A model generated the notes under the pieces. It was given only the letters and a program-made list of their open reading frames with translations. It was not told where the DNA came from and made no database searches. This document shows, in pieces, positions 2,609 to 44,704 of a DNA stretch of 46,166 bases. Numbering within the stretch: position 1 is the first letter of the stretch; each line of letters starts with the position of its first letter. This stretch comes from a phage: the NCBI GenBank assembly GCA_017760785.1, contig GCA_017760785.1_4320.1. One strand, 5' to 3'. A program made the position numbers and the translations under genes.

Positions 2609-3024
2609 AAATTACAGATAAAGAAGATTACATTGAGTTTTACCCTGGGCCAGTAAAGTCTTGCCCGAAAGAGGATGAAGAACAAATCTTTTGCTCTGAT
2701 TGGGTTAAGTATAACTACCCAGATATGGTATTTTTCCACTGCGTGAATGAGGGAAAGAAAACCATTGGTCAAGCAAGAAAAGACCAGGCTAAGGGTCTTC
2801 TCAAGGGCGTATCAGACTGCGTATTTATGATTCCAGAGAAATACCGTGGCAACTACTCATTTGGAGCCATAGAGCTAAAGAGGGCTGGGAAAACACAGGC
2901 CATCCCAGTTAGTGATGAACAGAAGTCCTTCCTCAAAAGCGTAAGAGAATCAGGTGGCTTCGCCGCAGTGGCCTACGGGCGGGAGGGTTTTTTATCTGCG
3001 TTTAAAGAAATGATTTCAAAATAG
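2605..3024 (+). CDS. VRR-NUC-like PD-(D/E)xK nuclease
   Basis: ATGA overlap with helicase stop; D...ELK motif; 139 aa. Confidence 0.55.
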   Translation: MKITDKEDYIEFYPGPVKSCPKEDEEQIFCSDWVKYNYPDMVFFHCVNEGKKTIGQARKDQAKGLLKGVSDCVFMIPEKYRGNYSFGAIELKRAGKTQAIPVSDEQKSFLKSVRESGGFAAVAYGREGFLSAFKEMISK

Positions 3025-3064
3025 CACTAATTGCTAAAGACGTTTCGGTGAGTTGGTGTATTAT
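3022..3064 (+). promoter_or_regulatory. motif-type promoter (TAGCACTAATTGCTA, 22 bp, TATTAT)
   Basis: palindrome plus spaced -10; CATCGAAACGA leader follows. Confidence 0.55.
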
Positions 3065-3102
3065 CTATTCATCGAAACGAAACGCACAAAGAGAGAAAGA
3101 AA

Positions 3103-3297
3103 ATGGCTACTATCTTTACTGGTAAAATCTACGAATCACGCAAAACTGGTTATGAATATGAATTAGCAATCACCGCTGAGGGTTATGTTCTTGACGATGG
3201 TGAAGGTTATGCATTCGAAGTTAGCCCAACATACAAAGACGACCTGGAAACTGTTAAAAACGCATATGGTGAAAAATTTGATGAGGTATCGGAATAA
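3103..3297 (+). CDS. hypothetical small protein
   Basis: ORF preceded by TAGCAC motif promoter and purine-rich SD. Confidence 0.5.
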   Translation: MATIFTGKIYESRKTGYEYELAITAEGYVLDDGEGYAFEVSPTYKDDLETVKNAYGEKFDEVSE

Positions 3298-3521
3298 TGG
3301 CAATTTTTACATTTGAAAATCAATGGGAAGTTTTCCAGACGATGGTTGTTGAGGAGCTCAGCAAAGCTAAGTATAACAAGGGGGATGCGTGGTATTTGGC
3401 TGCATCACTTGATATGAGTTTCGAGGAAGACTACCTGAACACCGATATTGAAACATGGCGTGACCGTATGGTTGCTGATATCGAAGAAATGAAGAAAGAT
3501 TGCCCGGAGGATTTCTTATGA
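3297..3521 (+). CDS. hypothetical small protein
   Basis: ORF; start overlaps previous stop. Confidence 0.45.
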   Translation: MAIFTFENQWEVFQTMVVEELSKAKYNKGDAWYLAASLDMSFEEDYLNTDIETWRDRMVADIEEMKKDCPEDFL

Positions 3522-3706
3522 TTGGCATCTGCGTAGAAACAAATGGCCACTTTACACTGCTTGAGGATTACGAAATTAATTTCGATTCATACTCAATAAC
3601 ATTGCTAAGCGACTTCGGGTGTTATTGGTTCATTTATGATCAAGGTGATGGTTACTACGGTTGCGTAGATGCAAACGGAAAAGAAGTTAGTTTTTTGGTT
3701 GAATAG
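3518..3706 (+). CDS. hypothetical small protein
   Basis: ATGA overlap with previous stop; ends in TAG of next motif. Confidence 0.4.
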   Translation: MIGICVETNGHFTLLEDYEINFDSYSITLLSDFGCYWFIYDQGDGYYGCVDANGKEVSFLVE

Positions 3707-3748
3707 CACCCTTATTTGTCATTGGTGCAGCATGTAAATTTATATAAT
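3704..3748 (+). promoter_or_regulatory. variant motif promoter (TAGCAC half-site, TATAAT)
   Basis: half motif plus -10 before 3763 ORF. Confidence 0.4.
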
Positions 3749-3762
3749 TAGGAGTATACAAC

Positions 3763-3891
3763 ATGAATAAGGCAAAAATTATCGCTGATATGCTTAAGAT
3801 TGCCGACCGTCTGAATAAAATCGTTGCGGAGATGGAGATCAGAAAGCAAGACATGATCACCAAATCCAAACGACAAACCTCCACTCTTTGA
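3763..3891 (+). CDS. hypothetical 42-aa protein
   Basis: hand-translated ORF below track cutoff; own motif promoter and AGGAG SD. Confidence 0.4.
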   Translation: MNKAKIIADMLKIADRLNKIVAEMEIRKQDMITKSKRQTSTL

Positions 3892-3896
3892 ATAGA

Positions 3897-3939
3897 TAGC
3901 ACTTTTTGTTAAAACTAAAATCCACGGATGGATTATATT
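3897..3939 (+). promoter_or_regulatory. motif-type promoter (TAGCACTTTTTGTTAA, TATATT)
   Basis: motif plus -10 at standard spacing. Confidence 0.5.
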
Positions 3940-3971
3940 AAACACATCAGCAACGAAGAGGATTTTGAATA

Positions 3972-4097
3972 ATGAAAATTGTAGACAAAGAGATTTTCGA
4001 GATTGCGAAGATTTATGCAAAACAAGCAGTTAGGGATAATGACAATTATTGCTGGATGTTCGCTAAAGAATACCTGAAAATGGCTTACGGATTATGA
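3972..4097 (+). CDS. hypothetical 41-aa protein
   Basis: hand-translated ORF below track cutoff; motif promoter at 3897. Confidence 0.4.
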   Translation: MKIVDKEIFEIAKIYAKQAVRDNDNYCWMFAKEYLKMAYGL

Positions 4098-4342
4098 TAG
4101 TTGAAACCGGACGCGCCGCTGTATGGGCGCATTGTGGAGAGGCTGGCTTGCAAGATGACATTAAGCATATATCCAGCTTCTTTTACATAAAAGACATTAG
4201 TGTCGTGTTCAATGGCAAATTCTCTTACATGAATGAGCGCCCAAGAAAATACGTAAGAGTTAAGCCAGGTGTTAGAATTGATGTTAACGAGTTCCTTAAA
4301 TCTGAGGGATTCAAGTTTAAGATAACGAAGCCCAAGGGTTGA
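4094..4342 (+). CDS. hypothetical small protein
   Basis: ORF; start overlaps previous stop. Confidence 0.4.
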   Translation: MIVETGRAAVWAHCGEAGLQDDIKHISSFFYIKDISVVFNGKFSYMNERPRKYVRVKPGVRIDVNEFLKSEGFKFKITKPKG

Positions 4343-4344
4343 TC

Positions 4345-4491
4345 ATGAAGCCGCACGAATATTCAGCGTTAGTTAATGGGTTGCTTGAGGTTGCTATAAA
4401 ATTCAAGGATACGCAGCAGTTAAGAGAGCAGCTATCACGAGAATTTTCAAGGCATGGTATTAGACCGAACCATAAGATGAAAAAGGATTGA
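4345..4491 (+). CDS. hypothetical 48-aa protein
   Basis: hand-translated ORF between track ORFs. Confidence 0.35.
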   Translation: MKPHEYSALVNGLLEVAIKFKDTQQLREQLSREFSRHGIRPNHKMKKD

Positions 4492-4493
4492 GT

Positions 4494-4745
4494 ATGTTGG
4501 GTTTAGATTTTCAGCCAGAGCATTACGATTTAGTGCATGGGCAAAGTGGTGCGAAGTTTAGAGCGATACCTATTACTGATTGGTTCCCTCCGGACTATGT
4601 GGACGTGAACGCAAAAACTAAAGAATGTAAGTTGGTCCAGATTTATTATTCTCCAGCGTGTGGAAACCTTTGCATGACTGACCTTGAACAGAAGCTAACA
4701 ATTAGTGCTGATTTGATTGACTACTGGTTAAAAGAAGTTGAATGA
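4494..4745 (+). CDS. hypothetical small protein
   Basis: ORF; first ATG at 4494 (track start 4488 is TTG). Confidence 0.45.
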   Translation: MLGLDFQPEHYDLVHGQSGAKFRAIPITDWFPPDYVDVNAKTKECKLVQIYYSPACGNLCMTDLEQKLTISADLIDYWLKEVE

Positions 4746-4828
4746 GAGCCCTAACACTAGTAGCATTAGTCCCACTGTTTAGCTTTACTATCTTACACTT
4801 TATCGTAATGAATTAAGGAACTTATATA

Positions 4829-5959
4829 ATGGCAACTGCAAAGATTAGCAACGGACAACTACGCGAAGAACTGGCAAATGGCATGACCAACAAGGCAATC
4901 GCAGAGAAGTACGGAATGAACATTCGCAACGTTGAATTGCGTCGCAGTAAATTGGCTAAGAGTGGAGAGTTGCACGGGAACCCAGGTATCAAGAAGTTAG
5001 TTCCTGACGGTTATTTGGTCAAAGGTACGTCAACCATGATTGATGCTGATGGAAACGAGAAGATTCGCTGGGTTAAGACCTCAATTGATAATGAGCGACT
5101 TGAGGTTTTAATGGAGCAAGCTCGAGAAGCATTCTGTTCTGAGTTGCCAAAAGCAGATGTAGTCACCCACTCAGGTAATGAAGTTAACTCAGAACTAATG
5201 ACTCTTTATCCGATTTTCGATATTCATATCGGTATGATGGCACATCGTCATGAGTCTGGTGAGAATTATGACACGAACACCGCAGAGGAATTAATGGCAT
5301 CATATTTTGACCATTCAATTTCTGTATCTCCAGCCTCAGGGAAAGCCGTGATTTTAGTTGGTGGCGACTTCCTTCACTCTGATGGACTGGAAGCGGTAAC
5401 TCCATCAAGTGGTCACTGCCTTGATCAAGATAGTCGATATGCTAAGTTAGTTTATGTGGCAATTCGCTCAATTCGCGGCGCTGTAGAGAAGATGCTTAAG
5501 AAGCACAGGGAGGTCGAGATTCAAATCATAGAGGGGAACCATGACCAAAGTGGCATGATTTGGCTTCGCGCAGCAATGGCTGCATTTTATGAAAACGAGA
5601 GTCGCGTGCTTGTTGATACCAGTCCGGCAATCATGCATAAAACACGATTTGGCTCAACATTGCTTGGTTACACTCATGGCCACACCATGAAGAAAGCCGA
5701 TGGTCGACTTGCAGCAATGGCAACTGACTACCGAAAAGACTTTGGTGAATGTGAATTTGTTTACTGCCACTCCGGCCATTTCCATCATGCCACTGTTACA
5801 GAGTGCACTCTCGGGATTGATGAGGTTCATCCAGCCCTGGCTAGTAAGGACGCATATGCGGCGCGTGGAGGGTGGCGTTCATATCGACAAGCGGCTGCAA
5901 TTGTTTACCACAAGAACTTTGGCGAGGTTGGTCGACACATTTATCGACCTGGCATGTAA
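4829..5959 (+). CDS. calcineurin-like metallophosphoesterase with N-terminal HTH-like region
   Basis: motifs DIHIG, GGDFLHSDG, GNHD, GHxH; 376 aa. Confidence 0.65.
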   Translation: MATAKISNGQLREELANGMTNKAIAEKYGMNIRNVELRRSKLAKSGELHGNPGIKKLVPDGYLVKGTSTMIDADGNEKIRWVKTSIDNERLEVLMEQAREAFCSELPKADVVTHSGNEVNSELMTLYPIFDIHIGMMAHRHESGENYDTNTAEELMASYFDHSISVSPASGKAVILVGGDFLHSDGLEAVTPSSGHCLDQDSRYAKLVYVAIRSIRGAVEKMLKKHREVEIQIIEGNHDQSGMIWLRAAMAAFYENESRVLVDTSPAIMHKTRFGSTLLGYTHGHTMKKADGRLAAMATDYRKDFGECEFVYCHSGHFHHATVTECTLGIDEVHPALASKDAYAARGGWRSYRQAAAIVYHKNFGEVGRHIYRPGM

Positions 5960-5960
5960 A

Positions 5961-5976
5961 TAGCACCTTTTGTTAA
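5961..5976 (+). promoter_or_regulatory. motif copy TAGCACCTTTTGTTAA, -10 unclear
   Basis: motif after stop of 4829-5959; hairpin downstream. Confidence 0.35.
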
Positions 5977-6032
5977 TAAAGCCTCAAAGGATTGAGGCAA
6001 AATAAATAAACATTAACGAGATGAGATTTTAA

Positions 6033-6506: not shown

Positions 6507-7063
6507 AAATGACTAAATTATTTATACTTAATGGCCCAGCTGGAGTTGGTAAGGACACTATAGCGGATATCATGGTTGAGACCGGTGTAGCCAAAGAAAA
6601 GGTATCATTCAAGTCACCAATGTTTAACGTTGCAAAAGGAATGCTATCAAGCGATGAATTTGATGGATTCATCAAGAATTACGACAATAGAGACTATAAG
6701 GAATCACCTCATGGATTTCTTGTCGGTATGACAGTTCGTGAATTTATGATTTGGATTAGCGAGTCTGTAATGAAGCCAGTCTTTGGTGATGATGTTTTCG
6801 GTAAAAGGCTAGCCCAGTCACTTGGTGATGGTTGCTACATTTGCGCTGACGGTGGATTTGCTAGCGAGATTAAGCCACTGATCGACTCTGGTGTTGAGGT
6901 CACGTTAATCAGATTGCATAGGTCAGAGTACACATTTGATGGCGATAGTCGCTCATACATTCACGGTGTGTGCGCAAGAGAAATTGATGTTCGTGTTATT
7001 AGTGGTGATATTGATGGAACATCAGCATTGGTAAGGCACGTAATAAATAGCACTAATTGCTAA
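6503..7063 (+). CDS. P-loop nucleotide/polynucleotide kinase-like protein
   Basis: Walker A GPAGVGKDT; ATGA overlap with phosphatase stop. Confidence 0.55.
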   Translation: MKMTKLFILNGPAGVGKDTIADIMVETGVAKEKVSFKSPMFNVAKGMLSSDEFDGFIKNYDNRDYKESPHGFLVGMTVREFMIWISESVMKPVFGDDVFGKRLAQSLGDGCYICADGGFASEIKPLIDSGVEVTLIRLHRSEYTFDGDSRSYIHGVCAREIDVRVISGDIDGTSALVRHVINSTNC

Positions 7064-7090
7064 GAATTATAAATATCAATGCGGCACAAT
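7048..7090 (+). promoter_or_regulatory. motif-type promoter (TAGCACTAATTGCTAA, weak -10 CACAAT)
   Basis: motif then CATCGAAAAC leader before 7122. Confidence 0.45.
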
Positions 7091-7121
7091 TACCACATCG
7101 AAAACAACAGAGGGTTCAAAA

Positions 7122-7295: not shown

Positions 7296-7318
7296 CGCAT
7301 CTAAAACATAGCTTTACA

Positions 7319-10429: not shown

Positions 10430-10459
10430 TACTTCTCTCCGTATTGTTTCTGAGCGGCC

Positions 10460-10502
10460 ATTATATCAACGACCGCTTATAATACATTATCAATTTGTGC
10501 TA
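10460..10502 (-). promoter_or_regulatory. motif-type promoter (TAGCACAAATTGATAA, 21 bp, TATAAT)
   Basis: minus strand; drives 8846-10429 ATPase gene. Confidence 0.5.
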
Positions 10503-10503
10503 T

Positions 10504-11018: not shown

Positions 11019-11050
11019 GCTTGCTTACTCTCTTTCGTTTCGATGAGGTA

Positions 11051-11093
11051 ACTATACAACAAAAGCACCGAAGGGCTTTAGCAATTAGTGCTA
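11051..11093 (-). promoter_or_regulatory. motif-type promoter (TAGCACTAATTGCTAA, 21 bp, TATAGT)
   Basis: minus strand; CATCGAAACGA leader follows. Confidence 0.55.
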
Positions 11094-11471
11094 TACGCCA
11101 TAATCTATCTTAACCAGTTTCCCTTTGTAGTATCCAAAGTTCTTTGGAAAAGCGTCGTACTCAAAGAAATCACGGTCAAGCGTTCTATATTCATCATTAT
11201 CAACGTCATCATATAGCTTTTGCAGGTCGGATTTAAAAAGCTCCTCATTATCAACTGGCTCAGCCTTATGCATCACAACCATTAGGCCGAACCTGTTTGA
11301 GTATGCTATTGGGCACAGGTTCTTGTTATCAACCCCCTTCCATTGGCCCTCAGTCATGTTGCTGAGCATCCCCTGCACAAAGGCCTTCCAGGAATTAAAT
11401 CTCGGGAACTTAATCGCATACTTTTTTGTGATTAGTACAAGCCTGGTCCCACCACTTCTATTTAGTTTCAT
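11091..11471 (-). CDS. hypothetical protein
   Basis: 126-aa ORF with AAGGA SD; stop lies in TAGCAC motif. Confidence 0.5.
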   Translation of the reverse strand: MKLNRSGGTRLVLITKKYAIKFPRFNSWKAFVQGMLSNMTEGQWKGVDNKNLCPIAYSNRFGLMVVMHKAEPVDNEELFKSDLQKLYDDVDNDEYRTLDRDFFEYDAFPKNFGYYKGKLVKIDYGV

Positions 11472-12421: not shown

Positions 12422-12448
12422 ATCTATGTCCTCGTTGCTGATGAGCTA

Positions 12449-12492
12449 ACTATAGCGTCACCACATTAACATGTCTTTAGCAAAAAGTGCCA
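12449..12492 (-). promoter_or_regulatory. variant motif promoter (TGGCACTTTTTGCTAA, TATAGT)
   Basis: minus strand; drives 12227-12421. Confidence 0.5.
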
Positions 12493-12720
12493 TTCGTTAG
12501 ATTTATGGATTGTTGCAGATATTGAAATGATTAACATGATTATTGCACATATAGTAATATTGCTTCCGATGCAATGATTTTTTTGATTGTTGCGAAAAGT
12601 GAAATAAAGTGGTGAGTGAGTGAATGAAAGATGGATGGACTACCATACAAGTTGATTTTGATTCTGTCCGAGCCGCTTTGCGTATACGCGTTATGAAAGT
12701 TATGCCGTGTAGATAAACCT

Positions 12721-13020: not shown

Positions 13021-13096
13021 ATAACACTTGATAACGTGTAGACGTGTGTTATTATGGGTTCACCTTAACGAATGGGAACCAATCAGGAGTAATAAA

Positions 13097-13947: not shown

Positions 13948-14145
13948 AAGATGAAACTCGCTTGCCTCGTTAGGGATAATGTTTATGTCAACCCGGCAAT
14001 CCTGGAGGAAGATTGGGAACCTAACTTCAAAGCCTACGAAGGTGAGCATCCTAGTAGACTACCATACCACTTAATGTACAGTGAGGACTAGGTGGGGATG
14101 GCGATTGAGCTCTACCGGAAAGCTAAATCAATCCTTAGCGGTGAA

Positions 14146-14188
14146 TAGCATGAATTGGTAAATCTTCCGCGAGTCCATTTGCTATAGT
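14146..14188 (+). promoter_or_regulatory. variant motif promoter (TAGCATGAATTGGTAA, 21 bp, TATAGT)
   Basis: same geometry before 14216 ORF. Confidence 0.45.
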
Positions 14189-14215
14189 GGACTCATTGAA
14201 GCGAAACAACAAATC

Positions 14216-14619: not shown

Positions 14620-14880
14620 ATGAGCAAGTACGATCGTGAGATTATTGGCATTGATGGCACGGTAACAACAATAGATGTTTATCGTGTCCTTGATGCTTTT
14701 TGCGTATCTGACCCAGCAACGCAACACGCGATAAAGAAGATGCTTTGCATGGGCTTGCGTGGTCACAAGGATTACCTTACAGATCTTAATGACTCGATTG
14801 ATTCACTACATAAGGCTAAAGAGCTTTACGGGCAGAAGATGATTCATGAATCAGATAAATCAGTTCTGAGTGGCAAATAG
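14620..14880 (+). CDS. hypothetical protein
   Basis: 86-aa ORF; stop TAG is first triplet of next motif. Confidence 0.45.
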   Translation: MSKYDREIIGIDGTVTTIDVYRVLDAFCVSDPATQHAIKKMLCMGLRGHKDYLTDLNDSIDSLHKAKELYGQKMIHESDKSVLSGK

Positions 14881-14920
14881 CACGAATTGCTAAACGCGAT
14901 CAGGAGGGTTTTGTTATAGT
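14878..14920 (+). promoter_or_regulatory. motif-type promoter (TAGCACGAATTGCTAA, 21 bp, TGtTATAGT)
   Basis: archetype copy; TG-extended -10. Confidence 0.6.
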
Positions 14921-14950
14921 TAGTTCACACCAAACGAGAGGGGATTAAAA

Positions 14951-15615: not shown

Positions 15616-15754
15616 TTTACATTCACACATACTACACAGGCAAGTTCAACAGCGTTAGCATGTTCGGCTACATGAGAAGAAGAGCGATGCGATTAAGCAA
15701 TATGAGGTTCTTGGAGGTGTAGTTATTGAGGCAATGAAAACACAAAACATTAAA

Positions 15755-15797
15755 TAGCGCGAATTGCTAAAACAGAATCGGGGTAATTTGGTATAGT
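15755..15797 (+). promoter_or_regulatory. motif-type promoter (TAGCGCGAATTGCTAA, TGgTATAGT)
   Basis: CCATCGAAACGAA leader follows. Confidence 0.6.
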
Positions 15798-15827
15798 TAC
15801 CCCATCGAAACGAACGAGGAATCAGAA

Positions 15828-16393: not shown

Positions 16394-16533
16394 GCTTCAC
16401 TGAATACGTGATCGCATGTGAACGACTGGTCTTTGATATGAAGGCTTTTCACTGGTTCATCATTAAGGATTTAATCAAGCCGTACAAGCAAGGCGTGACA
16501 CCTGAGGCTTTTGTTAAGTCATTCTATAAATAG
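16390..16533 (+). CDS. hypothetical 47-aa protein
   Basis: ATGA overlap with previous ORF; ends in TAG of motif at 16531. Confidence 0.35.
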   Translation: MSFTEYVIACERLVFDMKAFHWFIIKDLIKPYKQGVTPEAFVKSFYK

Positions 16534-16573
16534 CACTAATTGCTAAACGTAGTTGCCACGGATGGCATATAAT
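16531..16573 (+). promoter_or_regulatory. motif-type promoter (TAGCACTAATTGCTAA, TATAAT)
   Basis: standard spacing before 16604 ORF. Confidence 0.55.
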
Positions 16574-16603
16574 TACCCTATCAACACAGCGAGAGATTGA
16601 TAA

Positions 16604-17330: not shown

Positions 17331-17408
17331 GCTCCGCTAGCTCAATGGGATAGCAGCAACGACCTTCTAAGTCGTAGGTTGCTGGTTCGAATCCAGTGCG
17401 GAGCGCCA
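17331..17408 (+). tRNA. tRNA-Arg (anticodon TCT)
   Basis: acceptor stem GCTCCGC/GCGGAGC, anticodon stem ACGAC/GTCGT with loop CTTCTAA, T-loop TTCGAAT, 3' GCCA; D-arm atypical. Confidence 0.7.
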
Positions 17409-26652: not shown

Positions 26653-26657
26653 TTGCG

Positions 26658-26700
26658 TAGCACTTTTTGATAAATCACTTATTCAACTTTGATGTATAGT
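26658..26700 (+). promoter_or_regulatory. motif-type promoter (TAGCACTTTTTGATAA, TATAGT)
   Basis: drives moron 26734-26982; CATCGAAACGAAA leader. Confidence 0.55.
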
Positions 26701-26733
26701 TAACTCATCGAAACGAAATGAGAGATTAAAGAA

Positions 26734-27690: not shown

Positions 27691-30669
27691 ATGGCAACAA
27701 ATGAATTAGCCGGAATCACACTAGCCGTAGATGTATCGCAAGTAGACAGGGGTACACAATCCCTACAGAAGTTCAGGCAGGCAAACCAACAGGCTGCTTC
27801 TGGTATTAGTGAGTTCGTTAATGCCGAGCAGGTTGCTAAAAACCAGGCTAGAGATACAGCGCGCGCACTTGCTGAGCAAAAGGCATCTTTGGCTAAATTG
27901 CAAACTGCCATTGATCCAACTGCGGCAAAGTTCCGTAAACTCCAGGAGGCAGCGGTAGGTCTTGATAAGGCTTTCGCGGCTGGCGTAGTTCCTGATGAGG
28001 AGTTTTTCCGGTTAGGTGAGGCACTTGAAACGCAGAACGCAAAACTTGCTCGCTCACGTGCGGCGCTAACTGAAGAAGGAAGAGCGGCGGCACAGTCTGC
28101 TAAGGATAAGGCAAAAGCAAAGGCTGAAGCGGATAGATTCATTGCATCACTTGAGCGACAGGCTCAGGCTGCAACATTGACGCGTGAGGAGTACTTAAAG
28201 TTACAAGCGGCTCAGCTTGGCGTTAGTTCCCAGGCTGCACCCATCATTGACAGAATCGCCGACGCATCACAGAAGGCAAACACCCAGTTAATTGCTCAGA
28301 GTAAGGCTTTTCAGAAATCAGGATTAAGCGCGGGGCAATACAAGAACGCGATTTCTCAGCTGCCAGCGCAGATTACTGATATAGGTACCTCTCTCGCTGG
28401 TGGCATTCCGATTTGGCTTATTGCAATTCAGCAAGGTGGGCAAATTAAGGATGCTTTTGGTGGTATTGGTAACACCTTTAGATTCGCGCTTGCAGCCTTA
28501 AACCCATTCAATGTAGCTGTTGGTGTTTTGGGTGGGGTACTTGTAGCTCTTGGTGTTGGTGCGGCTCAGGCTGAAAGTGAATTCAGAGCATTAAACTCCG
28601 CAATTGCGTTCTCCAACAACTCTACAATCGCATCAATCTCGCAGGTTAGAGAGTTGGTTAGCTCTGTTTCTGATGCAACAGGTGCCACTAGGGGACTTGT
28701 GACTAGTATCGCAACAATCCTTATTGAGCAGGGGAATCTTACGCTAACGCAGATTGACAAGATTACCAAATCAACCGCCAGATGGGCGCAGCTTACCGGA
28801 AAGGATGCAAAGGAGATTACTGGTTACTATAACCAGATTGCAAGCGACCCAATCCAGGGTTTAGTTGATTTGGATAAGCGCTTTAACTTCCTCACGCAGG
28901 GGCAGTTGACGACAATCGAAAACCTGAGAAAGACAAAGGGAGATGTTGAGGCCGTTACCGCCGCAATTGACATTTTCAGCAAGTCGCAGGAAGCCAACCT
29001 TAACGACATAGCAGCGCAGTTAACTCCACTTGAGTTGGCATGGAATGATTTTAGGAAGTACATCTCTGATATCTGGGATGCAATTAGCCGCAGAACGGTA
29101 GGCGCTTTAAACTTGTTTGTTGATGTAATCGCCGGAACAATTGAGCAAATCAAGGTCTTCATTAACCAGGGCGACGTGCTGATTGGTGAATTTGTAGTTA
29201 GCGCAACCCGGGCATTGCAGAACATTCCTGGTCTTGATGGCGTTGGTGATGATGTTATCAAGGGTCAGCAAAAGATTATCGATGCGGCTAAGAAACAAAA
29301 CCTTGAGCTAGAAAAGTCTATCAGGGAGCGAGATTCAAGAATCAGGGAAGGAGAGCTTGGTTACATTACTCGCAGAGAAAATCAGAATACCAATGAGCAG
29401 TCAGGGACTGATGAGGAGTTCTCAAAAAGGAAGAAGGCACTTCAGGATGAGCTTGATGCGATCAAGAAGAACAGGAAAGAAGAAAATGGTAGAGTTAAGG
29501 AGCAAAGAGACCTTACAATTGGTTACGAATCTGGCGTGTTGGCGCTCCAGGCTCAGCTCAAGGTTATTCAGGAAAACAGGGATATCGGCGCAGTAATAAG
29601 CAATGAGCGCAAGCAGTACCTTCAGGAAGAGGCTAAATTCAGGATCCTTGAGCAAAGGCAAATTGATGGCTCAATTACCAAAGAGCAAGCAAGACTTCTC
29701 ATTGAAAAGGATAAAGTTCTTGAGTTAGCTAGACAGAAAGCTGAGCTAGGTGATCAGATTGTTTTGCAGGAGCGCGCCAATAAGCTGGCTGAAGATAACC
29801 GCAAGAAGATTCTTCAGATTAACAACGAAGCAAGTAACATAGATTTGGGTGCTGGCCTGTCTTCTCGGGAACAGCAAAGAGCTAAAGAGATTCAGGCTCT
29901 TCAGTCCAATCAGATTAATGCTGGTGGTTCTGTTGGTGATGTTGATTTTAAGCAGTTGCTGGAGGCAAGGAAGGAGTACTACAAGCAGGAGGATAATCTT
30001 AGGTCTGATTGGCAATCCGGTGTAACATCCACTCTCGCTGACTTGACTGAGAAGTACACTGACTACAACCAGATTGCTAAGGATTTAACTGTTGCAGCAT
30101 TCGACGGGATTACAGACCAGATCACGAATCTTGTGACCACTGGTGAGACTAATTTCAGAGATTTCACAGCAAGCATCCTCAAAATGATTGCGAAGATTGC
30201 AACTCAGTTACTTTTGGTTAAGGCTATAGAATCAACATTAACTAGTTTTGGTGGTGGAGGAGGTAACGCATTTGGCTCTTTTGCGTCTGCTATAGGTTTT
30301 GCTGGCGGTGGCTACACTGGTGATGGCGGCAAGTATCAGCCAGCAGGAACGGTTCATCGTGGAGAGTTTGTATTCACAAAGGAAGCAACAAGCCGAATTG
30401 GTGTTAAGAACCTATACGCACTAATGAAGGGTTATGCAAACGGCGGCGCTGTTGGTGGTCCATCTGGTTATGCAAATGGCGGCTTTGTTTCTGGTGGTAC
30501 AGATGTTAATGTTAGCGGCATCACCGTTAACGTTAATGGTGGCGTTGGTAGCGACCCAGAACAAGCCAAGGCACTGCAAAGCGGAGTCAAGGCAATCGTA
30601 GCGGAAGAGATTGCGCAGTCTTTCCAGCAGGGTGGAAGGGCTTATGCTTACTTGAGAGGTTTTAACTAA
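27691..30669 (+). CDS. tail tape measure protein
   Basis: 992 aa, coiled-coil rich, Gly-rich C-terminus. Confidence 0.85.
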   Translation: MATNELAGITLAVDVSQVDRGTQSLQKFRQANQQAASGISEFVNAEQVAKNQARDTARALAEQKASLAKLQTAIDPTAAKFRKLQEAAVGLDKAFAAGVVPDEEFFRLGEALETQNAKLARSRAALTEEGRAAAQSAKDKAKAKAEADRFIASLERQAQAATLTREEYLKLQAAQLGVSSQAAPIIDRIADASQKANTQLIAQSKAFQKSGLSAGQYKNAISQLPAQITDIGTSLAGGIPIWLIAIQQGGQIKDAFGGIGNTFRFALAALNPFNVAVGVLGGVLVALGVGAAQAESEFRALNSAIAFSNNSTIASISQVRELVSSVSDATGATRGLVTSIATILIEQGNLTLTQIDKITKSTARWAQLTGKDAKEITGYYNQIASDPIQGLVDLDKRFNFLTQGQLTTIENLRKTKGDVEAVTAAIDIFSKSQEANLNDIAAQLTPLELAWNDFRKYISDIWDAISRRTVGALNLFVDVIAGTIEQIKVFINQGDVLIGEFVVSATRALQNIPGLDGVGDDVIKGQQKIIDAAKKQNLELEKSIRERDSRIREGELGYITRRENQNTNEQSGTDEEFSKRKKALQDELDAIKKNRKEENGRVKEQRDLTIGYESGVLALQAQLKVIQENRDIGAVISNERKQYLQEEAKFRILEQRQIDGSITKEQARLLIEKDKVLELARQKAELGDQIVLQERANKLAEDNRKKILQINNEASNIDLGAGLSSREQQRAKEIQALQSNQINAGGSVGDVDFKQLLEARKEYYKQEDNLRSDWQSGVTSTLADLTEKYTDYNQIAKDLTVAAFDGITDQITNLVTTGETNFRDFTASILKMIAKIATQLLLVKAIESTLTSFGGGGGNAFGSFASAIGFAGGGYTGDGGKYQPAGTVHRGEFVFTKEATSRIGVKNLYALMKGYANGGAVGGPSGYANGGFVSGGTDVNVSGITVNVNGGVGSDPEQAKALQSGVKAIVAEEIAQSFQQGGRAYAYLRGFN

Positions 30670-30712
30670 TAGCACAAAATGGTAAAGCCAAAAGGATTTG
30701 GCTTGCTATAAT
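30670..30712 (+). promoter_or_regulatory. motif-like promoter (TAGCACAAAATGGTAA, TATAAT)
   Basis: immediately after tape-measure stop; drives HNH gene. Confidence 0.45.
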
Positions 30713-30740
30713 CAACTCATTAAAATCATGAGGTGATAAA

Positions 30741-31229
30741 ATGAACTGGAATGATATTTTTGATTATAGAGATGGCGTTCTTTATTGGAAGATAAAGCCA
30801 GGAAAGAACATGCTGCTTGGATCGAGGGCCGGAACAATTAGAAAGAATGGTTATCTTTCTGTTGGTTTTGACAGAAGTGAATTTTACATTCACAGGATAG
30901 TTTGGGAGATGCATAATGGCTCAATACCAGATCTAATGCAGATAGATCATATAGACCAGATAAGGACAAACAATAAGATTGAAAACTTGAGACTTGTAAC
31001 TAGCGCAGAAAATAACAGAAATCAAACAATGCAGTATAATAACACTAGCGGATACACTGGAGTTACATGGAGGAAGGATAGATGCAAATGGTCTGCAAGA
31101 ATCGAGTTTGAAGGCAAGGTTAGATATCTTGGTAACTTTTCAAAATTCGATGAAGCAGTGGCAGCAAGAAAATTAGCAGAGGATATGTTTGGATTTCACG
31201 AAAATCATGGCAAGAGGAAAATAAAATGA
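30741..31229 (+). CDS. HNH homing endonuclease with AP2-like domain
   Basis: N-terminal YWKIK, HID motif, C-terminal GYTGV...W AP2-like; own promoter. Confidence 0.75.
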   Translation: MNWNDIFDYRDGVLYWKIKPGKNMLLGSRAGTIRKNGYLSVGFDRSEFYIHRIVWEMHNGSIPDLMQIDHIDQIRTNNKIENLRLVTSAENNRNQTMQYNNTSGYTGVTWRKDRCKWSARIEFEGKVRYLGNFSKFDEAVAARKLAEDMFGFHENHGKRKIK

Positions 31230-31612: not shown

Positions 31613-32368
31613 ATGTTAAGTCCAAAGTTTGAAAATCAGTTGCAAAGCCTTTTCCCAGGCGAGATTGTGACTCTAATTCAGGTTGACGGAACGTCGTTTG
31701 GTTCTCGCGTTTACAATTTCCACAATGAGAACATTTCATACACACCTGAAGAAATCATGCTAGCACAAATGAATGGCGAGCCACTACCAGAGAAAACCAT
31801 CACCTTCCGTGGTGAAGAGTACGGCCCAAGACCGTTCGGAATCTCTGGCATAAATATGACTTCTGACGGCAAAGCCAACAAAGTGACGCTAACAGTATCA
31901 AACGTAGACCAGCGAATTAGCGCATTGATTCGAACATACAACGGACTTGTTAAAGCTAAGGTTACCATCTGGATTACTACGCGAGATAACATCAATGAAG
32001 ACGGAAGCATTGCTGATGGGGATTATCGCAGATTCGTTTACTTCATTGAGCGGCCGAAGCAGGTTGATTATAAAACAGCGTCATTTGAGCTAAGCTCACC
32101 TATGGATATGGACGGCATTTATATTCCAGCGAGACTTGTTCAGTCTGTTTGCTATTTCGCCTCCAGGGGCTGGTATCGCAGCGGCAATGGCTGCACCTAT
32201 GCTGGAAATCGATACTTCGATAAAGATGATAACCAGGTAGATGACCCTTCATTAGACTTCTGTGCCGGAACGGTCAACAGTTGCAAGATTAGGTTTGGTG
32301 AGAATAATCAGTTAGATTTTGGCGGCTGTGCGGCAGCTAGCCTTCAGGCTAAAGCAAATCAATCATAG
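31613..32368 (+). CDS. minor tail protein, lambda gpL-like
   Basis: C-terminal Cys cluster; ATG 31613 with GGAGA SD. Confidence 0.7.
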   Translation: MLSPKFENQLQSLFPGEIVTLIQVDGTSFGSRVYNFHNENISYTPEEIMLAQMNGEPLPEKTITFRGEEYGPRPFGISGINMTSDGKANKVTLTVSNVDQRISALIRTYNGLVKAKVTIWITTRDNINEDGSIADGDYRRFVYFIERPKQVDYKTASFELSSPMDMDGIYIPARLVQSVCYFASRGWYRSGNGCTYAGNRYFDKDDNQVDDPSLDFCAGTVNSCKIRFGENNQLDFGGCAAASLQAKANQS

Positions 32369-32413
32369 CACTTTTTGTTAAGAGGACGGACCAGATTTGG
32401 GCTATTCTATAAT
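32366..32413 (+). promoter_or_regulatory. motif-like promoter (TAGCACTTTTTGTTAA, TATAAT, spacer +5)
   Basis: drives second HNH gene. Confidence 0.4.
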
Positions 32414-32436
32414 CTCTTAAATTTGGGGGTTAAAAT

Positions 32437-32919
32437 ATGAATTGTCATGATTACTTTAGGTATGAAGATGGTAAAATCTACTGGAAGATAAAACCAAAAA
32501 GAAAGCCTTTCCTTTTTGGTTGCGAAGCTGGTAGCGGTAATCCTGGTGAGTATAAGACCGTTAAGATTGATGGATACAGATACAGGTGTCACAGGGTAAT
32601 ATATGAGATGTTTAATGGCAGTATTAAAGATGGCATGGTTATTGATCACATAAATGGCCTGAAAGATGACAATCGAATTGAAAATCTAAGATGTGTAACT
32701 GTCTCAATTAACGCAAAGAATCAAAAAGTTAATGCTAAAAACAATTCTGGAATTAATGGTGTAAGACTTTACAAGAGGACTGGTAAGTGGATTGCTTACA
32801 GCAAGTCTTTCGGTAAGTGCGTTCATCTTGGATATTTTTATTCTATTGAATCCGCAATTGACGCGAGGGACTTATATAATTCAACAAATGGTTTCACAGA
32901 GAGGCATGGGAAATGTTAA
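32437..32919 (+). CDS. HNH homing endonuclease with AP2-like domain
   Basis: paralogue of 30741-31229; own promoter. Confidence 0.75.
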   Translation: MNCHDYFRYEDGKIYWKIKPKRKPFLFGCEAGSGNPGEYKTVKIDGYRYRCHRVIYEMFNGSIKDGMVIDHINGLKDDNRIENLRCVTVSINAKNQKVNAKNNSGINGVRLYKRTGKWIAYSKSFGKCVHLGYFYSIESAIDARDLYNSTNGFTERHGKC

Positions 32920-38921: not shown

Positions 38922-38960
38922 TTTATATACCTCATTAAGTTTTTTCGTTTCGATGGAGTA

Positions 38961-39003
38961 ATAGTACCGCATCCTTGCGGATTGTCTTTAGCAAACCGTG
39001 CTA
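38961..39003 (-). promoter_or_regulatory. motif-type promoter (TAGCACGGTTTGCTAA, 21 bp, TACTAT)
   Basis: minus strand; CCATCGAAACGAAAAA leader before Cor-like gene. Confidence 0.5.
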
Positions 39004-39677
39004 TTCGCAATAAATACAGCTCTTGCAAATCCACGAGGTGTAAGGCTGCGAATTACCTTTGTTTTCTTGCTCTTGCCTCCCAGCTTCTTGTATTGTTCAG
39101 AGAATCCATCGTCAACGACCACATTGATCGCCTCAGGCCAATTAAAGCCATTACCTGACCAGATGCATGTCTTCTTAGGATATGCGTCGCGAGGCTTTAT
39201 TAGGTCGCTAAAAAACGGGTGTAAATCATCTTCAGGCAAGTATCCACCAAACTCGTAAGGGTGGAGTGTATTGTCAGGTTTTCGCCAAAGAGATGAAAGC
39301 ACGCTAATTGGGTTCTCAATCATATAAGGTACGCCGTACTTCTCAGCCAGGTTAAAAGCAACCTTGCAAGTCTCTGCCGCCTCAATTTGAAAATTAGGAT
39401 TGGCCAGGCGCTTGCGATCAAAGTGTCTTGACCCACTCACGGCTAAATCAGTGCATGGGGGGAATGCCATGATAAAATCAGGCTTCACATCAAAATAAAA
39501 ATTGGCATCTATCCATGCGTTAACGTAGGTGATGTTCTCATGCTCAAATTTTGCATTTAAGTCACCATAGCTCCCGTGGTCAGACTCATCAAAGTTGAAG
39601 CAGTAGCAAGTATGTCCGGCTTCAGCCCAATCCTTTACAGCCAGACCAGAACCATCAAATAAAGACCAGATAACCAT
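38988..39677 (-). CDS. compact DNA C5-cytosine methyltransferase-like protein
   Basis: FDGSG, FPPCT, ENP motifs at C5-MTase-like spacing; ATG 39677 (alternative TTG 39710 lies inside the -10). Confidence 0.5.
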   Translation of the reverse strand: MVIWSLFDGSGLAVKDWAEAGHTCYCFNFDESDHGSYGDLNAKFEHENITYVNAWIDANFYFDVKPDFIMAFPPCTDLAVSGSRHFDRKRLANPNFQIEAAETCKVAFNLAEKYGVPYMIENPISVLSSLWRKPDNTLHPYEFGGYLPEDDLHPFFSDLIKPRDAYPKKTCIWSGNGFNWPEAINVVVDDGFSEQYKKLGGKSKKTKVIRSLTPRGFARAVFIANSTVC

Positions 39678-39711
39678 TTTTAAATCCTCTATCGTTGCTT
39701 GTGTGACCAAC

Positions 39712-39751
39712 TATACCAGGTTTTGCGGATTAGTTTTAGCTATTCGTGCCA
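39712..39751 (-). promoter_or_regulatory. variant motif promoter (TGGCACGAATAGCTAA, 20 bp, TGgTATAGT)
   Basis: minus strand; spacer shares AATCCGCAA with 38961-39003 promoter. Confidence 0.5.
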
Positions 39752-39789
39752 TTGCATACACGTAACCGTTGTAACTAGATGTATACAAT

Positions 39790-40110: not shown

Positions 40111-40135
40111 ATTCACACGTAAGTCTGAATCAACG

Positions 40136-40179
40136 ATTGGATAAACCAATTGGACTGTCTATGGTGCTGAATATATAGT
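40136..40179 (+). promoter_or_regulatory. alternative palindrome ATTGGATAAACCAAT upstream of TATAGT
   Basis: perfect 5-N5-5 inverted repeat at same distance from -10 as TAGCA palindromes. Confidence 0.45.
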
Positions 40180-40218
40180 TAACCCATCGAAAGCAAACAA
40201 CCACAGAGAGATACAGAA

Positions 40219-40413: not shown

Positions 40414-40416
40414 AAC

Positions 40417-40578
40417 ATGAAGATAAAGGTGTTTATAACTGAAGAAGAGATGCAGCAGCTAGGCGCTAATACGGACGTTGATGTTGCTAAAATCATAACG
40501 TATGATCTTAAAAACAGTGATTGCTATGATGAGTTTCCATATCCTGACTTTCGAGTTATTGTTAACATAGAGGATTGA
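40417..40578 (+). CDS. hypothetical 53-aa protein
   Basis: hand-translated ORF between track ORFs. Confidence 0.35.
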   Translation: MKIKVFITEEEMQQLGANTDVDVAKIITYDLKNSDCYDEFPYPDFRVIVNIED

Positions 40579-40581
40579 TAT

Positions 40582-41547: not shown

Positions 41548-41548
41548 A

Positions 41549-42013: not shown

Positions 42014-42014
42014 A

Positions 42015-42057
42015 TAGCACGAATCGCTAAAGACAAAATTAAAAGGTGGGGTATGAT
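42015..42057 (+). promoter_or_regulatory. motif-type promoter (TAGCACGAATCGCTAA, TATGAT)
   Basis: after dam stop; precedes erf region. Confidence 0.5.
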
Positions 42058-42088
42058 AACCATATCAACAACAAACGAGGTTAAAGTT

Positions 42089-42163
42089 ATGAATCTTCAC
42101 CCACTTACATATATCCACATTATCGCCTGGATCGTTTTATTCATTTACTTATTCAATCGATAA
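42089..42163 (+). CDS. 24-aa hydrophobic peptide (speculative)
   Basis: hand-translated MNLHPLTYIHIIAWIVLFIYLFNR; GAGGTT SD. Confidence 0.25.
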   Translation: MNLHPLTYIHIIAWIVLFIYLFNR

Positions 42164-42174
42164 GGATTTTAAAA

Positions 42175-42825
42175 ATGCAAATTTCAGAATCGTGCAAGTC
42201 AATTTTAAGCGCACTACACACTGCTAAATCGCTATTTGCGAAGGCTGAAAAGTCTAAGCAGAACTCTCACTTAAAGAATAATTACGCAACCTTAGAAGAC
42301 GTATTGGCCGCTGTTGAGCCTGGCTTGGACGAGTGTGGCTTGGTTATGTTCCAGAGCGTGCTTGATGATGAACAAACGAATCGTTTGAAGGTTGAGACAA
42401 AGCTATTTCACGCAGAATCTGGAGAGTGGGTTAGCTTCTTAATGATTGTCCCAATTAGTAAGAATGACGCGCAAGGTTACGGCTCAGCTTTAACATACGC
42501 TCGACGCTACGGAATCACGGCGGCATTGGGACTTAGCCAGGCAGATGATGATGGCAATCTCGCCGCTAAGGGTGTTAAGGATTTCAAGCGAGAGTTGGAG
42601 AAATGCAATACTCTTGATGAACTTCGTAACGTTTGGAAGGATGCCAAGCAATCACTCGACGCGGCAGGATGGAAGGTTTTTGAACCTCACATTATCGAGC
42701 GAAAGGCAGAGATTGAGGCAAATGCAGCAATTGGCTTCAACCCAGCAACACCAAAGAGAGTCACAGAAAAAAGTAGTCATAAAGAAAAGATTGAAGTAGA
42801 ATCACAACAAATTGACACATTCTAA
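42175..42825 (+). CDS. erf: Erf-family single-strand annealing protein
   Basis: GSALTYARRYG motif; neighbours exonuclease and SSB. Confidence 0.75.
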   Translation: MQISESCKSILSALHTAKSLFAKAEKSKQNSHLKNNYATLEDVLAAVEPGLDECGLVMFQSVLDDEQTNRLKVETKLFHAESGEWVSFLMIVPISKNDAQGYGSALTYARRYGITAALGLSQADDDGNLAAKGVKDFKRELEKCNTLDELRNVWKDAKQSLDAAGWKVFEPHIIERKAEIEANAAIGFNPATPKRVTEKSSHKEKIEVESQQIDTF

Positions 42826-42866
42826 ATTTAACGGGGCTTCGGCCCCAGCAATAGAGAGATAAAAAC

Positions 42867-43292
42867 ATGCACGTAATTACTGGTCAGATTCGCCGCGCTC
42901 CATTCACTAAAGAAGGTCAGAATGCTAATGGTGCCTGGAAAATGTTTGCGGTTGATTTGAGTGAGCGATACAAAGATAAAGATGGTCAGACTCAGTATAG
43001 TAACTATCGCGCCGTCTTCTTCGCTAAAGAGTCAATGCTAGATTGGTACAATGAAGCATTTCAAGAGGGTAAAGTTGTTAGCGTTATCGCGGAGACTCTT
43101 TCTGTTGATGTTAGGGATAAGGATGGCAAGACTTACGTTACTATCAATATGAACAATCCTCGACTTGAATTTAGTCATCGAGGTTACTCGGCACCACAAC
43201 AGCAGCAGCAAGGACAGCAACAGCAACCTCAACCTCAACAGCAGAGACATCCACAACCACAGCAGCAGTTTGATTCGGATATTCCATTCTGA
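42867..43292 (+). CDS. ssb: single-stranded DNA-binding protein
   Basis: Q/P-rich linker and C-terminal DSDIPF tail. Confidence 0.8.
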   Translation: MHVITGQIRRAPFTKEGQNANGAWKMFAVDLSERYKDKDGQTQYSNYRAVFFAKESMLDWYNEAFQEGKVVSVIAETLSVDVRDKDGKTYVTINMNNPRLEFSHRGYSAPQQQQQGQQQQPQPQQQRHPQPQQQFDSDIPF

Positions 43293-43304
43293 TTGGTGAA
43301 CAAA

Positions 43305-43332
43305 TAAGGAGCCTTGTGGCTCCTTTTTTTAT
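43305..43332. terminator. bidirectional terminator between ssb and tail fibre gene
   Basis: AGGAGCC-TTGT-GGCTCCT flanked by A-rich and T-run. Confidence 0.7.
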
Positions 43333-44663
43333 TTGTTATCAATCAAACTATTAATCAATAATTTAAGTTCACCAACCTCAACCTCAAGATTTTCAATTCT
43401 TTTCTTTGCTTCTTCGCTTTCACTTATTGTCACCTTTAGTGCACAAATGGCATCTAAAAGAAGCGCGTTCTGATCAAGAACCAGCCTCTCTCTGAACTCA
43501 GAACTACCAATTTTAACTCCATCATCATCTAAGATATCATTGCCTAATGGCTCAAATGTGTGCTTCACATACTGAGGGTCTATTTTTTCTATCTGTTGAG
43601 CTATAACGCCACGCCTCTCTCTTTTCTTTTCATCATCCTTAAACTTGAATGTAACAAGTTCCATTTTTTTAATGTTATAGACAGATTGCAATCCATCATA
43701 ATTAGATATATCAGTTTTGTAGTTAATGTCAGAAGTTCCTTGCAGCGCCAAGGTTCCTCCTGATGTTGGGAAGTTTATGATATATTGCCCATTATTGTTA
43801 TCAAGATTTCTCGTTGCAAGGTAAAACCCACCAGTTGGTGATATCTCAAAAACCCTTCTAGAACCAACGACATTTGACCCCGATGATGTTAGTGTAATGT
43901 TTGTGTATTCATTACTTATACAGAAAACATTATTACATGAAACTCTACCAGTAGTTGAGACCCCTCTGAATTCAACGTTATCAGTTGTAGACAACTGTAA
44001 GTTAGACCTTGCGGCTGCTTTATCCGGTATGTCCTGGAGATTCTTATCTTTAGCCAGAAAGAGGTCTGGATTAATGCTGTCAGCGTAACCTTTTGCGTTC
44101 GTTTCTGATGTTTTAGCTGCGTTCTGAGATGCAAGTGCCGCCGATGCTGAGTTAGCAGCGGCAGTCTGTGAAGCAGATGCGGCATTCTTACTTGCAAGAG
44201 CTGCCGCCGCAGAACCAGCTGCCGCCGTAGCAGAATCAGCTGCCGCATTTTTGCTTGCGTCTGCCGCCGCAGCGTCAGCCGTGACTTTTTCAGTCGTTAA
44301 TTTAAATTGCTCCCAATCAAATGTTTTGAAAAAATCAATTGCTTCCGCAACCTCAGTTTCTTTTCCCTGGTAGTATCGCAGTGTTTCAGCCACATCCTGG
44401 GCCAGCCCGTCAACCGTGATTGAATCGTGAAGAAGAATGACGTACTGAGATCCGGCGGGAACTACAGCGCCGTTTGTTGTCATTACCCGCAACTCCGTAT
44501 CACTAACTATTTCAGAGATCGTACCAATGGCCCCAACGACCGTAGGAAACATGATTGTTGCGCCAGCGCGGATCAGAGACAGCCTGTTTTGCCACTTAGT
44601 TCCTACGCCAATAGCAACGCCGTTTGAAGACAGTGATGCCGTCCCAGTTCTGTAAATTGCCAT
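43329..44663 (-). CDS. tail fibre protein, possible C-terminal chaperone domain
   Basis: ATG 44663 (track start 44711 lies inside palindrome); Ala-rich repeat region; C-terminal coiled coil. Confidence 0.65.
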   Translation of the reverse strand: MAIYRTGTASLSSNGVAIGVGTKWQNRLSLIRAGATIMFPTVVGAIGTISEIVSDTELRVMTTNGAVVPAGSQYVILLHDSITVDGLAQDVAETLRYYQGKETEVAEAIDFFKTFDWEQFKLTTEKVTADAAAADASKNAAADSATAAAGSAAAALASKNAASASQTAAANSASAALASQNAAKTSETNAKGYADSINPDLFLAKDKNLQDIPDKAAARSNLQLSTTDNVEFRGVSTTGRVSCNNVFCISNEYTNITLTSSGSNVVGSRRVFEISPTGGFYLATRNLDNNNGQYIINFPTSGGTLALQGTSDINYKTDISNYDGLQSVYNIKKMELVTFKFKDDEKKRERRGVIAQQIEKIDPQYVKHTFEPLGNDILDDDGVKIGSSEFRERLVLDQNALLLDAICALKVTISESEEAKKRIENLEVEVGELKLLINSLIDNK

Positions 44664-44688
44664 AATGTAAACCCCATATTTTGATTTA

Positions 44689-44704
44689 TAGCACGAATTG
44701 CTAA
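44689..44704 (-). promoter_or_regulatory. palindrome copy TAGCACGAATTGCTAA, 25 nt from tail-fibre ATG
   Basis: no room for standard -10 plus leader; may indicate leaderless start or other role. Confidence 0.35.

Follow-up and report, generated by a model that had tools for sequence, protein, structure and literature searches.

In Escherichia coli, MarA, SoxS and Rob are monomers with two helix-turn-helix (HTH) motifs that recognize a non-palindromic site, the marbox (PMC5684230, PMC9178005, PMC9638938). The consensus marbox consists of GCAC and YAAA recognition elements with an A/T-rich stretch between them, gcactaattgctaaa (PMC12052159, PMC5684230), and its degenerate form is written 5'-gcannwwntgnnaaa-3' (PMC12052159). 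In the class II arrangement a forward site overlaps the -35 region and is centred between -36 and -55 (PMC12052159); the class II soxbox is centred at -41.5 (PMC9638938), and in the cryo-electron microscopy structure of Rob with RNA polymerase and the micF promoter, Rob contacts G-47 and A-45 and occludes sigma region 4 from the -35 (PMC9178005). Here we describe a repeated element, TAGCA-N5-TGCTA, in a stretch of phage DNA of 46,166 nucleotides (GenBank assembly GCA_017760785.1, contig GCA_017760785.1_4320.1; the whole stretch is called the window below). On balance we favor the possibility that its copies are phage-borne class II marbox promoters, and that host MarA, SoxS or Rob, with Rob first among them, would be the most likely reader.

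Two further types of promoter offer points of comparison. At T4 middle promoters, as is proposed for the element described here, an activator box ahead of a good -10 takes the place of the -35 contact. The T4 box, the MotA box, has its centre near -30, 11-13 base pairs (bp) from the -10, and needs phage MotA and AsiA. CRP and FNR class II promoters, where a dimer is centred at -41.5, resemble the phage promoters in the position of the site centre and in having no -35 element, but CRP and FNR sites are two-fold symmetric and dimer-bound whereas the phage site is asymmetric and occurs in one polarity. T1 is a classic T phage, and to our knowledge its transcription programme, which operates without an RNA polymerase or sigma factor of its own, was never worked out. 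The genome papers on T1 relatives list few sigma-70 promoters (PMC4070988).

Sequence and geometry of the repeated element

The original prediction held that a palindromic element recurs between the genes of the window at a fixed distance from -10 hexamers. All of its coordinates could be located, and the pattern TAGCACN5GYTAA, with at most one mismatch, occurs 23 times in the window against 1.86 expected and a maximum of 6 in 100 shuffles. A weight matrix built from the sites returns 20 strong copies (at least 20 bits), the next best match scoring 10 bits and lying inside a gene. The list of sites needed some correction: two copies, at 526 on the plus strand and at 61-46 on the minus strand, had been overlooked; what was taken for a full copy at 3704 is a left half only (ATAGCACCCTTATTTGTCAT, below 10 bits, spacer 23); and the copy at 44689 is indeed exceptional in having no usable -10, although its GCAC lies on the plus strand and not on the minus strand. 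Placement between genes was borne out, as the strong sites are all either intergenic or run over the final codons or stop codon of the preceding gene (a stop codon that several copies supply with the TAG of TAGCAC), and all are directed at the next gene with the marbox in forward orientation. So was the fixed distance: a -10-like hexamer is found at a spacer of 20-22 bp, mostly 21, in 19 of the 20 strong sites (background 8.7%; binomial p ~1e-19), and the G of GCAC lies exactly 35 nucleotides before the first -10 base in 16 of 21 window sites. The promoters of the terminase, capsid and head-completion genes have no element, each being a terminator with an extended or perfect -10 after it, as had been claimed for terminase and capsid.

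Extending the alignment gave a conserved block of 19 bp, AATAGCACnWWTTGyTAAA, and the majority sequence of the motif, GCACTAATTGCTAAA, is the very sequence published as the consensus marbox of E. coli. For this comparison 71 aligned sites and 81 promoters were drawn from five phages, namely the window, Rtp, T1, Klebsiella phage 1513 and Pantoea phage PSKM, and counts out of 71 or 81 below refer to these sets. The majority base equals the published consensus at 15 of 15 positions, including the five that are N in the degenerate form. Within the window, three copies are exact 15/15 consensus marboxes, the degenerate form gcannwwntgnnaaa has 11 exact matches against 0.86 expected, and the older 20-mer AYnGCACnnWnnRYYAAAYn has 11 matches at no more than one mismatch against 0.95 expected.

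The spacing is equally constant, at 21 bp in 71 of the 81 promoters. A conserved C-1/A+1 lies seven nucleotides past the -10 hexamer, and numbering from there places GCAC at -47 to -44 and the conserved block at -51 to -33. The -10 reads TAtaaT, with A-11 and T-7 in all 71 sites, G-14 in 58 and a full TG in about 40% of copies. Positions -35 to -30 read AAAnnn, and so there is no -35 hexamer. The native micF promoter of MG1655, the single host promoter on which geometry was measured, reads ACAGCACTGAATGTCAAAAC, then 18 bp, then TAGAAT, with the G of GCAC 35 nucleotides before the hexamer, as in the phage. The phage promoters therefore resemble E. coli class II mar/sox/rob promoters, micF in particular, in having the same asymmetric 20-bp consensus box in forward orientation, 18 bp from box to -10, GCAC at -47 to -44 and no functional -35. 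The sequence and position features of a class II marbox promoter are thus present, namely (i) the asymmetric box sequence, (ii) a forward site at a micF-like distance and (iii) a poor or absent -35 together with a usable -10, and the earlier view of an activator-type site at a fixed class II position, centred at about -40 to -42, is supported. Canonical -35/-10 promoters showed no enrichment anywhere in the window (41 vs 35.6, 20 vs 27.4 and 23 vs 25.9), and it would follow that the marbox promoters, with a few bare extended -10 promoters, make up the promoter set of the phage.

There are also differences from the host promoters. The sites lie in the genome of a virulent phage, at about 20 per 46 kb; most are nearer the consensus than the micF or mar boxes themselves; and the host marbox consensus shows less conservation at T1/A2 and T10/T11 than the phage sites do. 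Unlike host class II promoters, the phage spacer usually carries a GC-rich hairpin that would double as the terminator of the upstream gene, and the phage promoters commonly have G-14 or an extended -10; they are predicted to depend on MarA, SoxS or Rob.

The same base composition and spacing bear on whether the block is read directly by RNA polymerase or some other factor, as an UP-like element or -35 substitute, a sigma-54-type promoter or a MotA/AsiA box. We regard this as improbable, since each of these candidates conflicts with base content, spacing or position, even though the TGGCAC-N5-TTGC variants at 12477 and 39736 look sigma-54-like, TGCTAA is similar to the MotA box TGCTT and the extended -10 elements imply some activity without an activator. 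Sigma-54 promoters have GG at -24 and GC at -12 with fixed spacing (TGGCAC-N5-TTGCW); here the second position is A in 70 of 71 sites where GG is needed, TTGC is 2 bp too near GCAC, and a -10 fixed 21 bp downstream would have no role. TTGCTA was correctly judged too distant to serve as a -35, as its 22-bp spacer is beyond any sigma-70 spacer, and invariant G and C positions are not what an A/T-rich UP element would show. In a T4 middle promoter TGCTAA would be off the MotA position, lying at -39 to -34 where MotA is centred near -30 (a difference already pointed out in the earlier work), and the phage box has the sequence of a marbox. MotA and AsiA are not among the Rtp or T1 annotations, although no search aimed at either was made.

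The copies in the window, and the gene of a phage regulator that is weighed below, are as follows.

12..62, minus strand: marbox promoter, GCAGCACTAAAAGCTAAAGA, spacer 21 bp, TGcCATAAT; serves the HNH/primase operon and wraps round the window end
32-9, minus strand: terminator hairpin enclosing the -10 of the promoter at 12..62
39..512, minus strand: gene of an Rtp52/T1 gp23-family HTH protein, Cro-like and not of the AraC family; rival candidate reader
525..574, plus strand: marbox promoter, ATAGCATTTTTTGTTAAAAG; upstream of the helicase gene at 614
3021..3071, plus strand: marbox promoter, exact 15/15 consensus (GCACTAATTGCTAAA); TAG is the stop codon of the VRR-NUC gene
3703..3750, plus strand: left half of a marbox, ATAGCACCC..., TATAAT at spacer 23; junction of a ~190-bp insertion relative to Rtp
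3896..3946, plus strand: marbox promoter, GCACTTTTTGTTAAA, spacer 21 bp, TATATT; spacer hairpin ATCCACGGATGGAT
5960..6010, plus strand: marbox promoter, weak -10 CAAAAT; strong hairpin in the spacer
7047..7097, plus strand: marbox promoter, 14/15 consensus match; -10 CACAAT
10453..10503, minus strand: marbox promoter, TGaTATAAT; upstream of the DNA helicase gene 10429-8846
11044..11094, minus strand: marbox promoter, exact 15/15 consensus; -10 TATAGT
12442..12493, minus strand: marbox promoter, TGGCAC variant; spacer 22
14145..14195, plus strand: marbox promoter, GCATGAATTGGTAAA, TGcTATAGT; inverted repeat GAGTCC/GGACTC around the -10
14877..14927, plus strand: marbox promoter, GCACGAATTGCTAAA, TGtTATAGT; TAG is the stop codon of the upstream gene
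15754..15804, plus strand: marbox promoter, GCGCGAATTGCTAAA, TGgTATAGT; GGGGTA/TACCCC repeat around the -10
16530..16580, plus strand: marbox promoter, exact 15/15 consensus; -10 TATAAT
26657..26707, plus strand: marbox promoter; after the major tail protein terminator and before the tail chaperone and tape-measure genes
30669..30719, plus strand: marbox promoter, TGcTATAAT; upstream of an HNH gene and minor tail genes
32365..32415, plus strand: marbox promoter, -10 TATTCT; upstream of an HNH gene and tail genes
38954..39004, minus strand: marbox promoter; upstream of lipoprotein (cor-like) and membrane protein genes
39703..39752, minus strand: marbox promoter, TGGCAC variant, spacer 20, TGgTATAGT
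42014..42064, plus strand: marbox promoter; upstream of the erf and ssb genes
44688..44707, plus strand: orphan consensus marbox, reversed relative to the tail-fibre gene; same layout in Rtp and T1

The window is a complete, circularly permuted Rtp/T1-like phage genome. It matches Rtp-like and T1-like siphophages (Drexlerviridae; vB_EcoS-12397V, CEB_EC3a and Rtp, at ~82-89% identity), and tblastn with the Rtp proteins found homologues of 58 of 75 Rtp genes, their order kept but circularly permuted. Our reasoning for completeness is that the minus-strand promoter starting from 61 runs over the window end into the HNH gene at 46151; a promoter that spans both ends means that the ends are contiguous and that the window is the whole genome. 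We infer the host of the phage from its relatives alone.

The same promoter module is found in Rtp (about 20 sites), T1 (19), Klebsiella phage 1513 (15) and Pantoea phage PSKM (8). In T1-like IMG/VR contigs amounting to about 1 Mb there are at least 523 distinct sites, at least 415 of them with a -10 at exactly 21 bp, a proportion that is inflated because at least one site per locus had been selected for that spacing. The IMG/VR matches listed are contigs of 41-53 kb, the size of T1, and so do not represent other phage families. A literature search, with the Rtp and T1 genome papers outside its range, found nothing tying marboxes or Rob, MarA or SoxS to T1-like phage promoters. The element described here is very probably the same as the "conserved inverted repeats" of Rtp reportedly described in the abstract of Wietzorrek et al. 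2006, our scan giving 20 copies in that phage where 10 are reported. The repeat itself has probably been noticed before; its identification with the marbox seems to be new. The two accounts also differ in that the earlier one reportedly has a phage HTH protein as binder, whereas we find a marbox in class II geometry and a helix in the Rtp52 family that does not track the motif.

Symmetry and the candidate readers

Our working model is that a single AraC-family activator of the MarA/SoxS/Rob type would read the asymmetric 20-bp marbox (also called soxbox or robbox), its first HTH reading GCAC and its second reading TAAA. The 19 forward marboxes, each 18 bp (counted from the end of the 20-mer) ahead of a -10 and with no -35, would then form a class II layout like that of micF, in which an activator at about -41 would replace the contact of sigma region 4 with the -35 and would touch sigma region 4 as well as the RNA polymerase alpha subunit's C-terminal domain (alpha-CTD). 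Rob would be the main reader, with MarA and SoxS adding to its effect under antibiotic or oxidative stress.

In the original prediction the element was the site of a dimeric regulator on two 5-bp half-sites, and the 71 aligned sites do not agree with this. The TAGCA/TGCTA dyad holds at 4 of the 5 half-site positions and is already contained, as a partial dyad, in the published consensus marbox. C6 is present in 67 of 71 sites, and its mirror position 10 is T in 67 of 71, not G; A0 and A-1 stand opposite A16 and A17, not T/T; and G3 is found in all 71 sites, its mirror C13 in only 44. Two-fold symmetry of the kind expected of a dimer operator is thus broken at C6/T10, G3/C13, A0/A16 and A-1/A17. 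As these asymmetric positions are the ones that define a marbox (GCAC...YAAA), the dimer reading is not supported, and a monomer is also suggested by the single polarity that all copies keep with respect to the -10.

A phage-encoded dimer nevertheless has an obvious candidate in the Rtp52/T1 gp23 homologue encoded at 39-512, which might bind TAGCA-N5-TGCTA and either activate from the class II position or repress later; on that view, chance or mimicry would account for the resemblance to the marbox. We consider this, the main rival reading, unlikely. The part of the dyad that holds is real, T1 and A2 are conserved beyond what a marbox requires and the regulator gene is present in all five motif-bearing phages, but the positions beyond the half-sites are asymmetric and marbox-like (C6/T10, AAA vs AA), the motif equals the consensus marbox at 15 of 15 positions, the geometry of micF is matched to the base pair, and a single polarity relative to the -10 would be needless for a symmetric dimer. 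The protein itself is weakly Cro-like, with a single HTH and a match to Pfam P22_Cro (E = 8.8e-6) that falls below the Pfam cut-off; it is classed in PHROGs as a "transcriptional regulator", no relative was found in the PDB, and none of these three sources gives a clue to its target. Its recognition helix is strongly divergent across four lineages (AVEEWFNRG / TVQGWKERN / VVQQWRKRG / GVRSWKR in the window, T1, phage 1513 and PSKM). The sequence and spacing of the motif are by contrast invariant, so that operator and helix do not co-vary; the capsid proteins of the motif-bearing phages are just 41-53% identical. An invariant motif combined with a divergent regulator helix fits a conserved host reader. 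The regulator gene has a -35/-10-like promoter of its own without a marbox (TTGTCT-17-TACAAT, 594-566, minus strand), which would make a cascade possible. This promoter and the marbox promoter of the helicase gene on the plus strand have overlapping -10s at 555-600 and form a face-to-face bidirectional pair.

Returning to a reader of the MarA type, we looked for one in the phages themselves. tblastn with MarA, SoxS and Rob found no member of the family in the window (best E = 3.2) or in the set of window, Rtp, T1 and phage 1513 (best E = 0.16-3.2). A profile of MarA, SoxS, Rob and PSKM gp47 run against all six-frame open reading frames (ORFs) of these four was equally empty (best E = 0.67), and the family is absent among the listed T1-like IMG/VR loci (~1 Mb). 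A phage-encoded MarA, SoxS or Rob was accordingly rejected for these four genomes. With no phage-encoded activator found, a host protein is the most likely reader, and we place Rob first for the unstressed cell because its expression is constitutive and high (PMC9178005), MarA and SoxS being inducible. Pantoea phage PSKM is a special case: its gp47 (L008 36886-37296) is a MarA-like AraC-family protein of 136 amino acids with 28% identity to MarA (E = 7.5e-12), and a marbox promoter lies at the stop codon of its gene.

Several observations weigh against a host MarA/SoxS/Rob reader and should be kept in mind. Most Rob is sequestered in unstressed cells, where inducers are lacking, and MarA and SoxS occur in small amounts. 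PSKM gp47 does not share the recognition-helix residues of MarA, SoxS and Rob, and for this reason we take that protein as no more than a hint. An HTH regulator of the Rtp52 family accompanies the motif in 5/5 phages, and the 2006 abstract mentioned above reportedly described 10 conserved inverted repeats upstream of Rtp genes, with Rtp52 as their regulator. With their G-14 or full extended -10, many copies could be active even when no activator is bound. T1 is conserved in 63 of 71 sites and A2 in 70 of 71, far above what a marbox needs at these positions (Y and n), and the site is more palindromic than host marboxes; use of TAG as the upstream stop codon explains only part of this, and the excess leaves room for a second protein that reads the dyad. 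A mixed version, with a host activator and the phage protein competing for the same DNA, is possible. Finally, our case is built on sequence identity and geometry, together with gene context and conservation across phages, and it is from these that we infer binding in vivo, activation and the paralogue that acts.

Implications for phage development

More tentative than the assignment of a reader, and in our view rather doubtful, is the broader proposal that T1-family phages have ceded promoter recognition to the host mar/sox/rob system, most of their transcription units being in effect members of that regulon. If it were true, bile salts and fatty acids (via Rob), antibiotics and salicylate (via MarA) and oxidative stress (via SoxS) would all influence phage development, and the activators would be titrated off host resistance genes by phage DNA as it replicates, each genome bringing about 20 consensus sites. 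The reversed marbox at the fibre start and the marbox-free head promoters could then provide a timing switch as free activator falls, in which the Rtp52-family protein might compete at the pseudo-dyad. The marbox assignment itself, should it be correct, would provide the missing promoter class of a very large phage family, the Drexlerviridae and relatives, which include many candidates for therapy against Klebsiella and E. coli as well as notorious fermentation contaminants. Phage expression would then be tied to the regulators of intrinsic antibiotic resistance, such that antibiotics, bile and oxidants could alter phage productivity and infection could alter drug tolerance.

Hairpins, leaders and atypical copies

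Between the marbox and the start, 53 of the 81 promoters have a hairpin much more stable than those of shuffles (z < -1.5; mean z = -2.45). These GC-rich hairpins lie inside the spacer abutting the -10, or have arms that bracket the -10, and their arm sequences vary while the pairing is kept. Examples are the following.

16552-16565, 3918-3931, 14170-14193, 15779-15802, 10481-10457 (minus strand) and 32-9 (minus strand): spacer/-10 hairpins, found also in the loci of Rtp, T1, Klebsiella phage 1513 and PSKM (L001, L006-L008)

The T1 record labels several such hairpins as rho-independent terminators. The terminator of one gene thus appears to sit within the promoter of the next, whose A/T-rich -10 would double as the U-tract, and this compact design would be a useful template for synthetic insulated expression units.

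The predicted transcripts open with a conserved leader of the AUCGAAACGAA type, about 21-33 nucleotides long. The start consists of C-1 and A+1 followed by TCGAAACGAA, poor in G and U (for example at 3071-3081, 15804-15814 and 26707-26717), with a Shine-Dalgarno sequence and start codon about 21-33 nucleotides past the start and a C-rich discriminator (taCCCC).

The orphan marbox at 44689, viewed on the minus strand, directly follows TGgTAGAAT (TGcTACAAT in Rtp), which itself lies past the primase terminator. This places the marbox at about +1 to +16 of the tail-fibre transcript, an arrangement conserved in three phages (the window, Rtp and T1; L001 ~33763, L006 ~34903), and it may be in a repressor or roadblock position.

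Two further sites depart from the usual form. The half-site at 3704 is followed by a segment of about 190 bp (3703-3896) that contains a 42-codon ORF (3763-3891) and is absent from Rtp between rtp57 and rtp58. The segment looks like an insertion with its junction inside a marbox promoter, and this suggests that the repeated promoters act as recombination points for mosaicism. At 40130-40195 there is a TATAGT, a start and leader of the form taaCCCATCGAAAG and a decayed marbox, CAACGATTGGATAAAC, in which GCAC is lost and 1 bp is inserted or deleted; judged by these remnants, it is an eroded marbox promoter.

Three HNH endonuclease genes were noted, at 45672-46151 on the minus strand and at 30741-31229 and 32437-32919 on the plus strand. 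The first is an insertion between the primase and regulator genes relative to Rtp, and the sizes of the genes that flank it agree with the table for the industrial phage DTL (PMC5816109). A gene for tRNA-Arg (anticodon TCT) lies at 17331-17408, upstream of the terminase genes, in a gap of about 400 bp that contains no ORF. The two arms of small early genes are separated by a divergent region with a sigma-70-like promoter on the plus strand at 13028-13055 (TTGATA, 16 bp, TGnTATTAT), which faces minus-strand candidates at 13078-13007, and these may be activator-independent immediate-early promoters.

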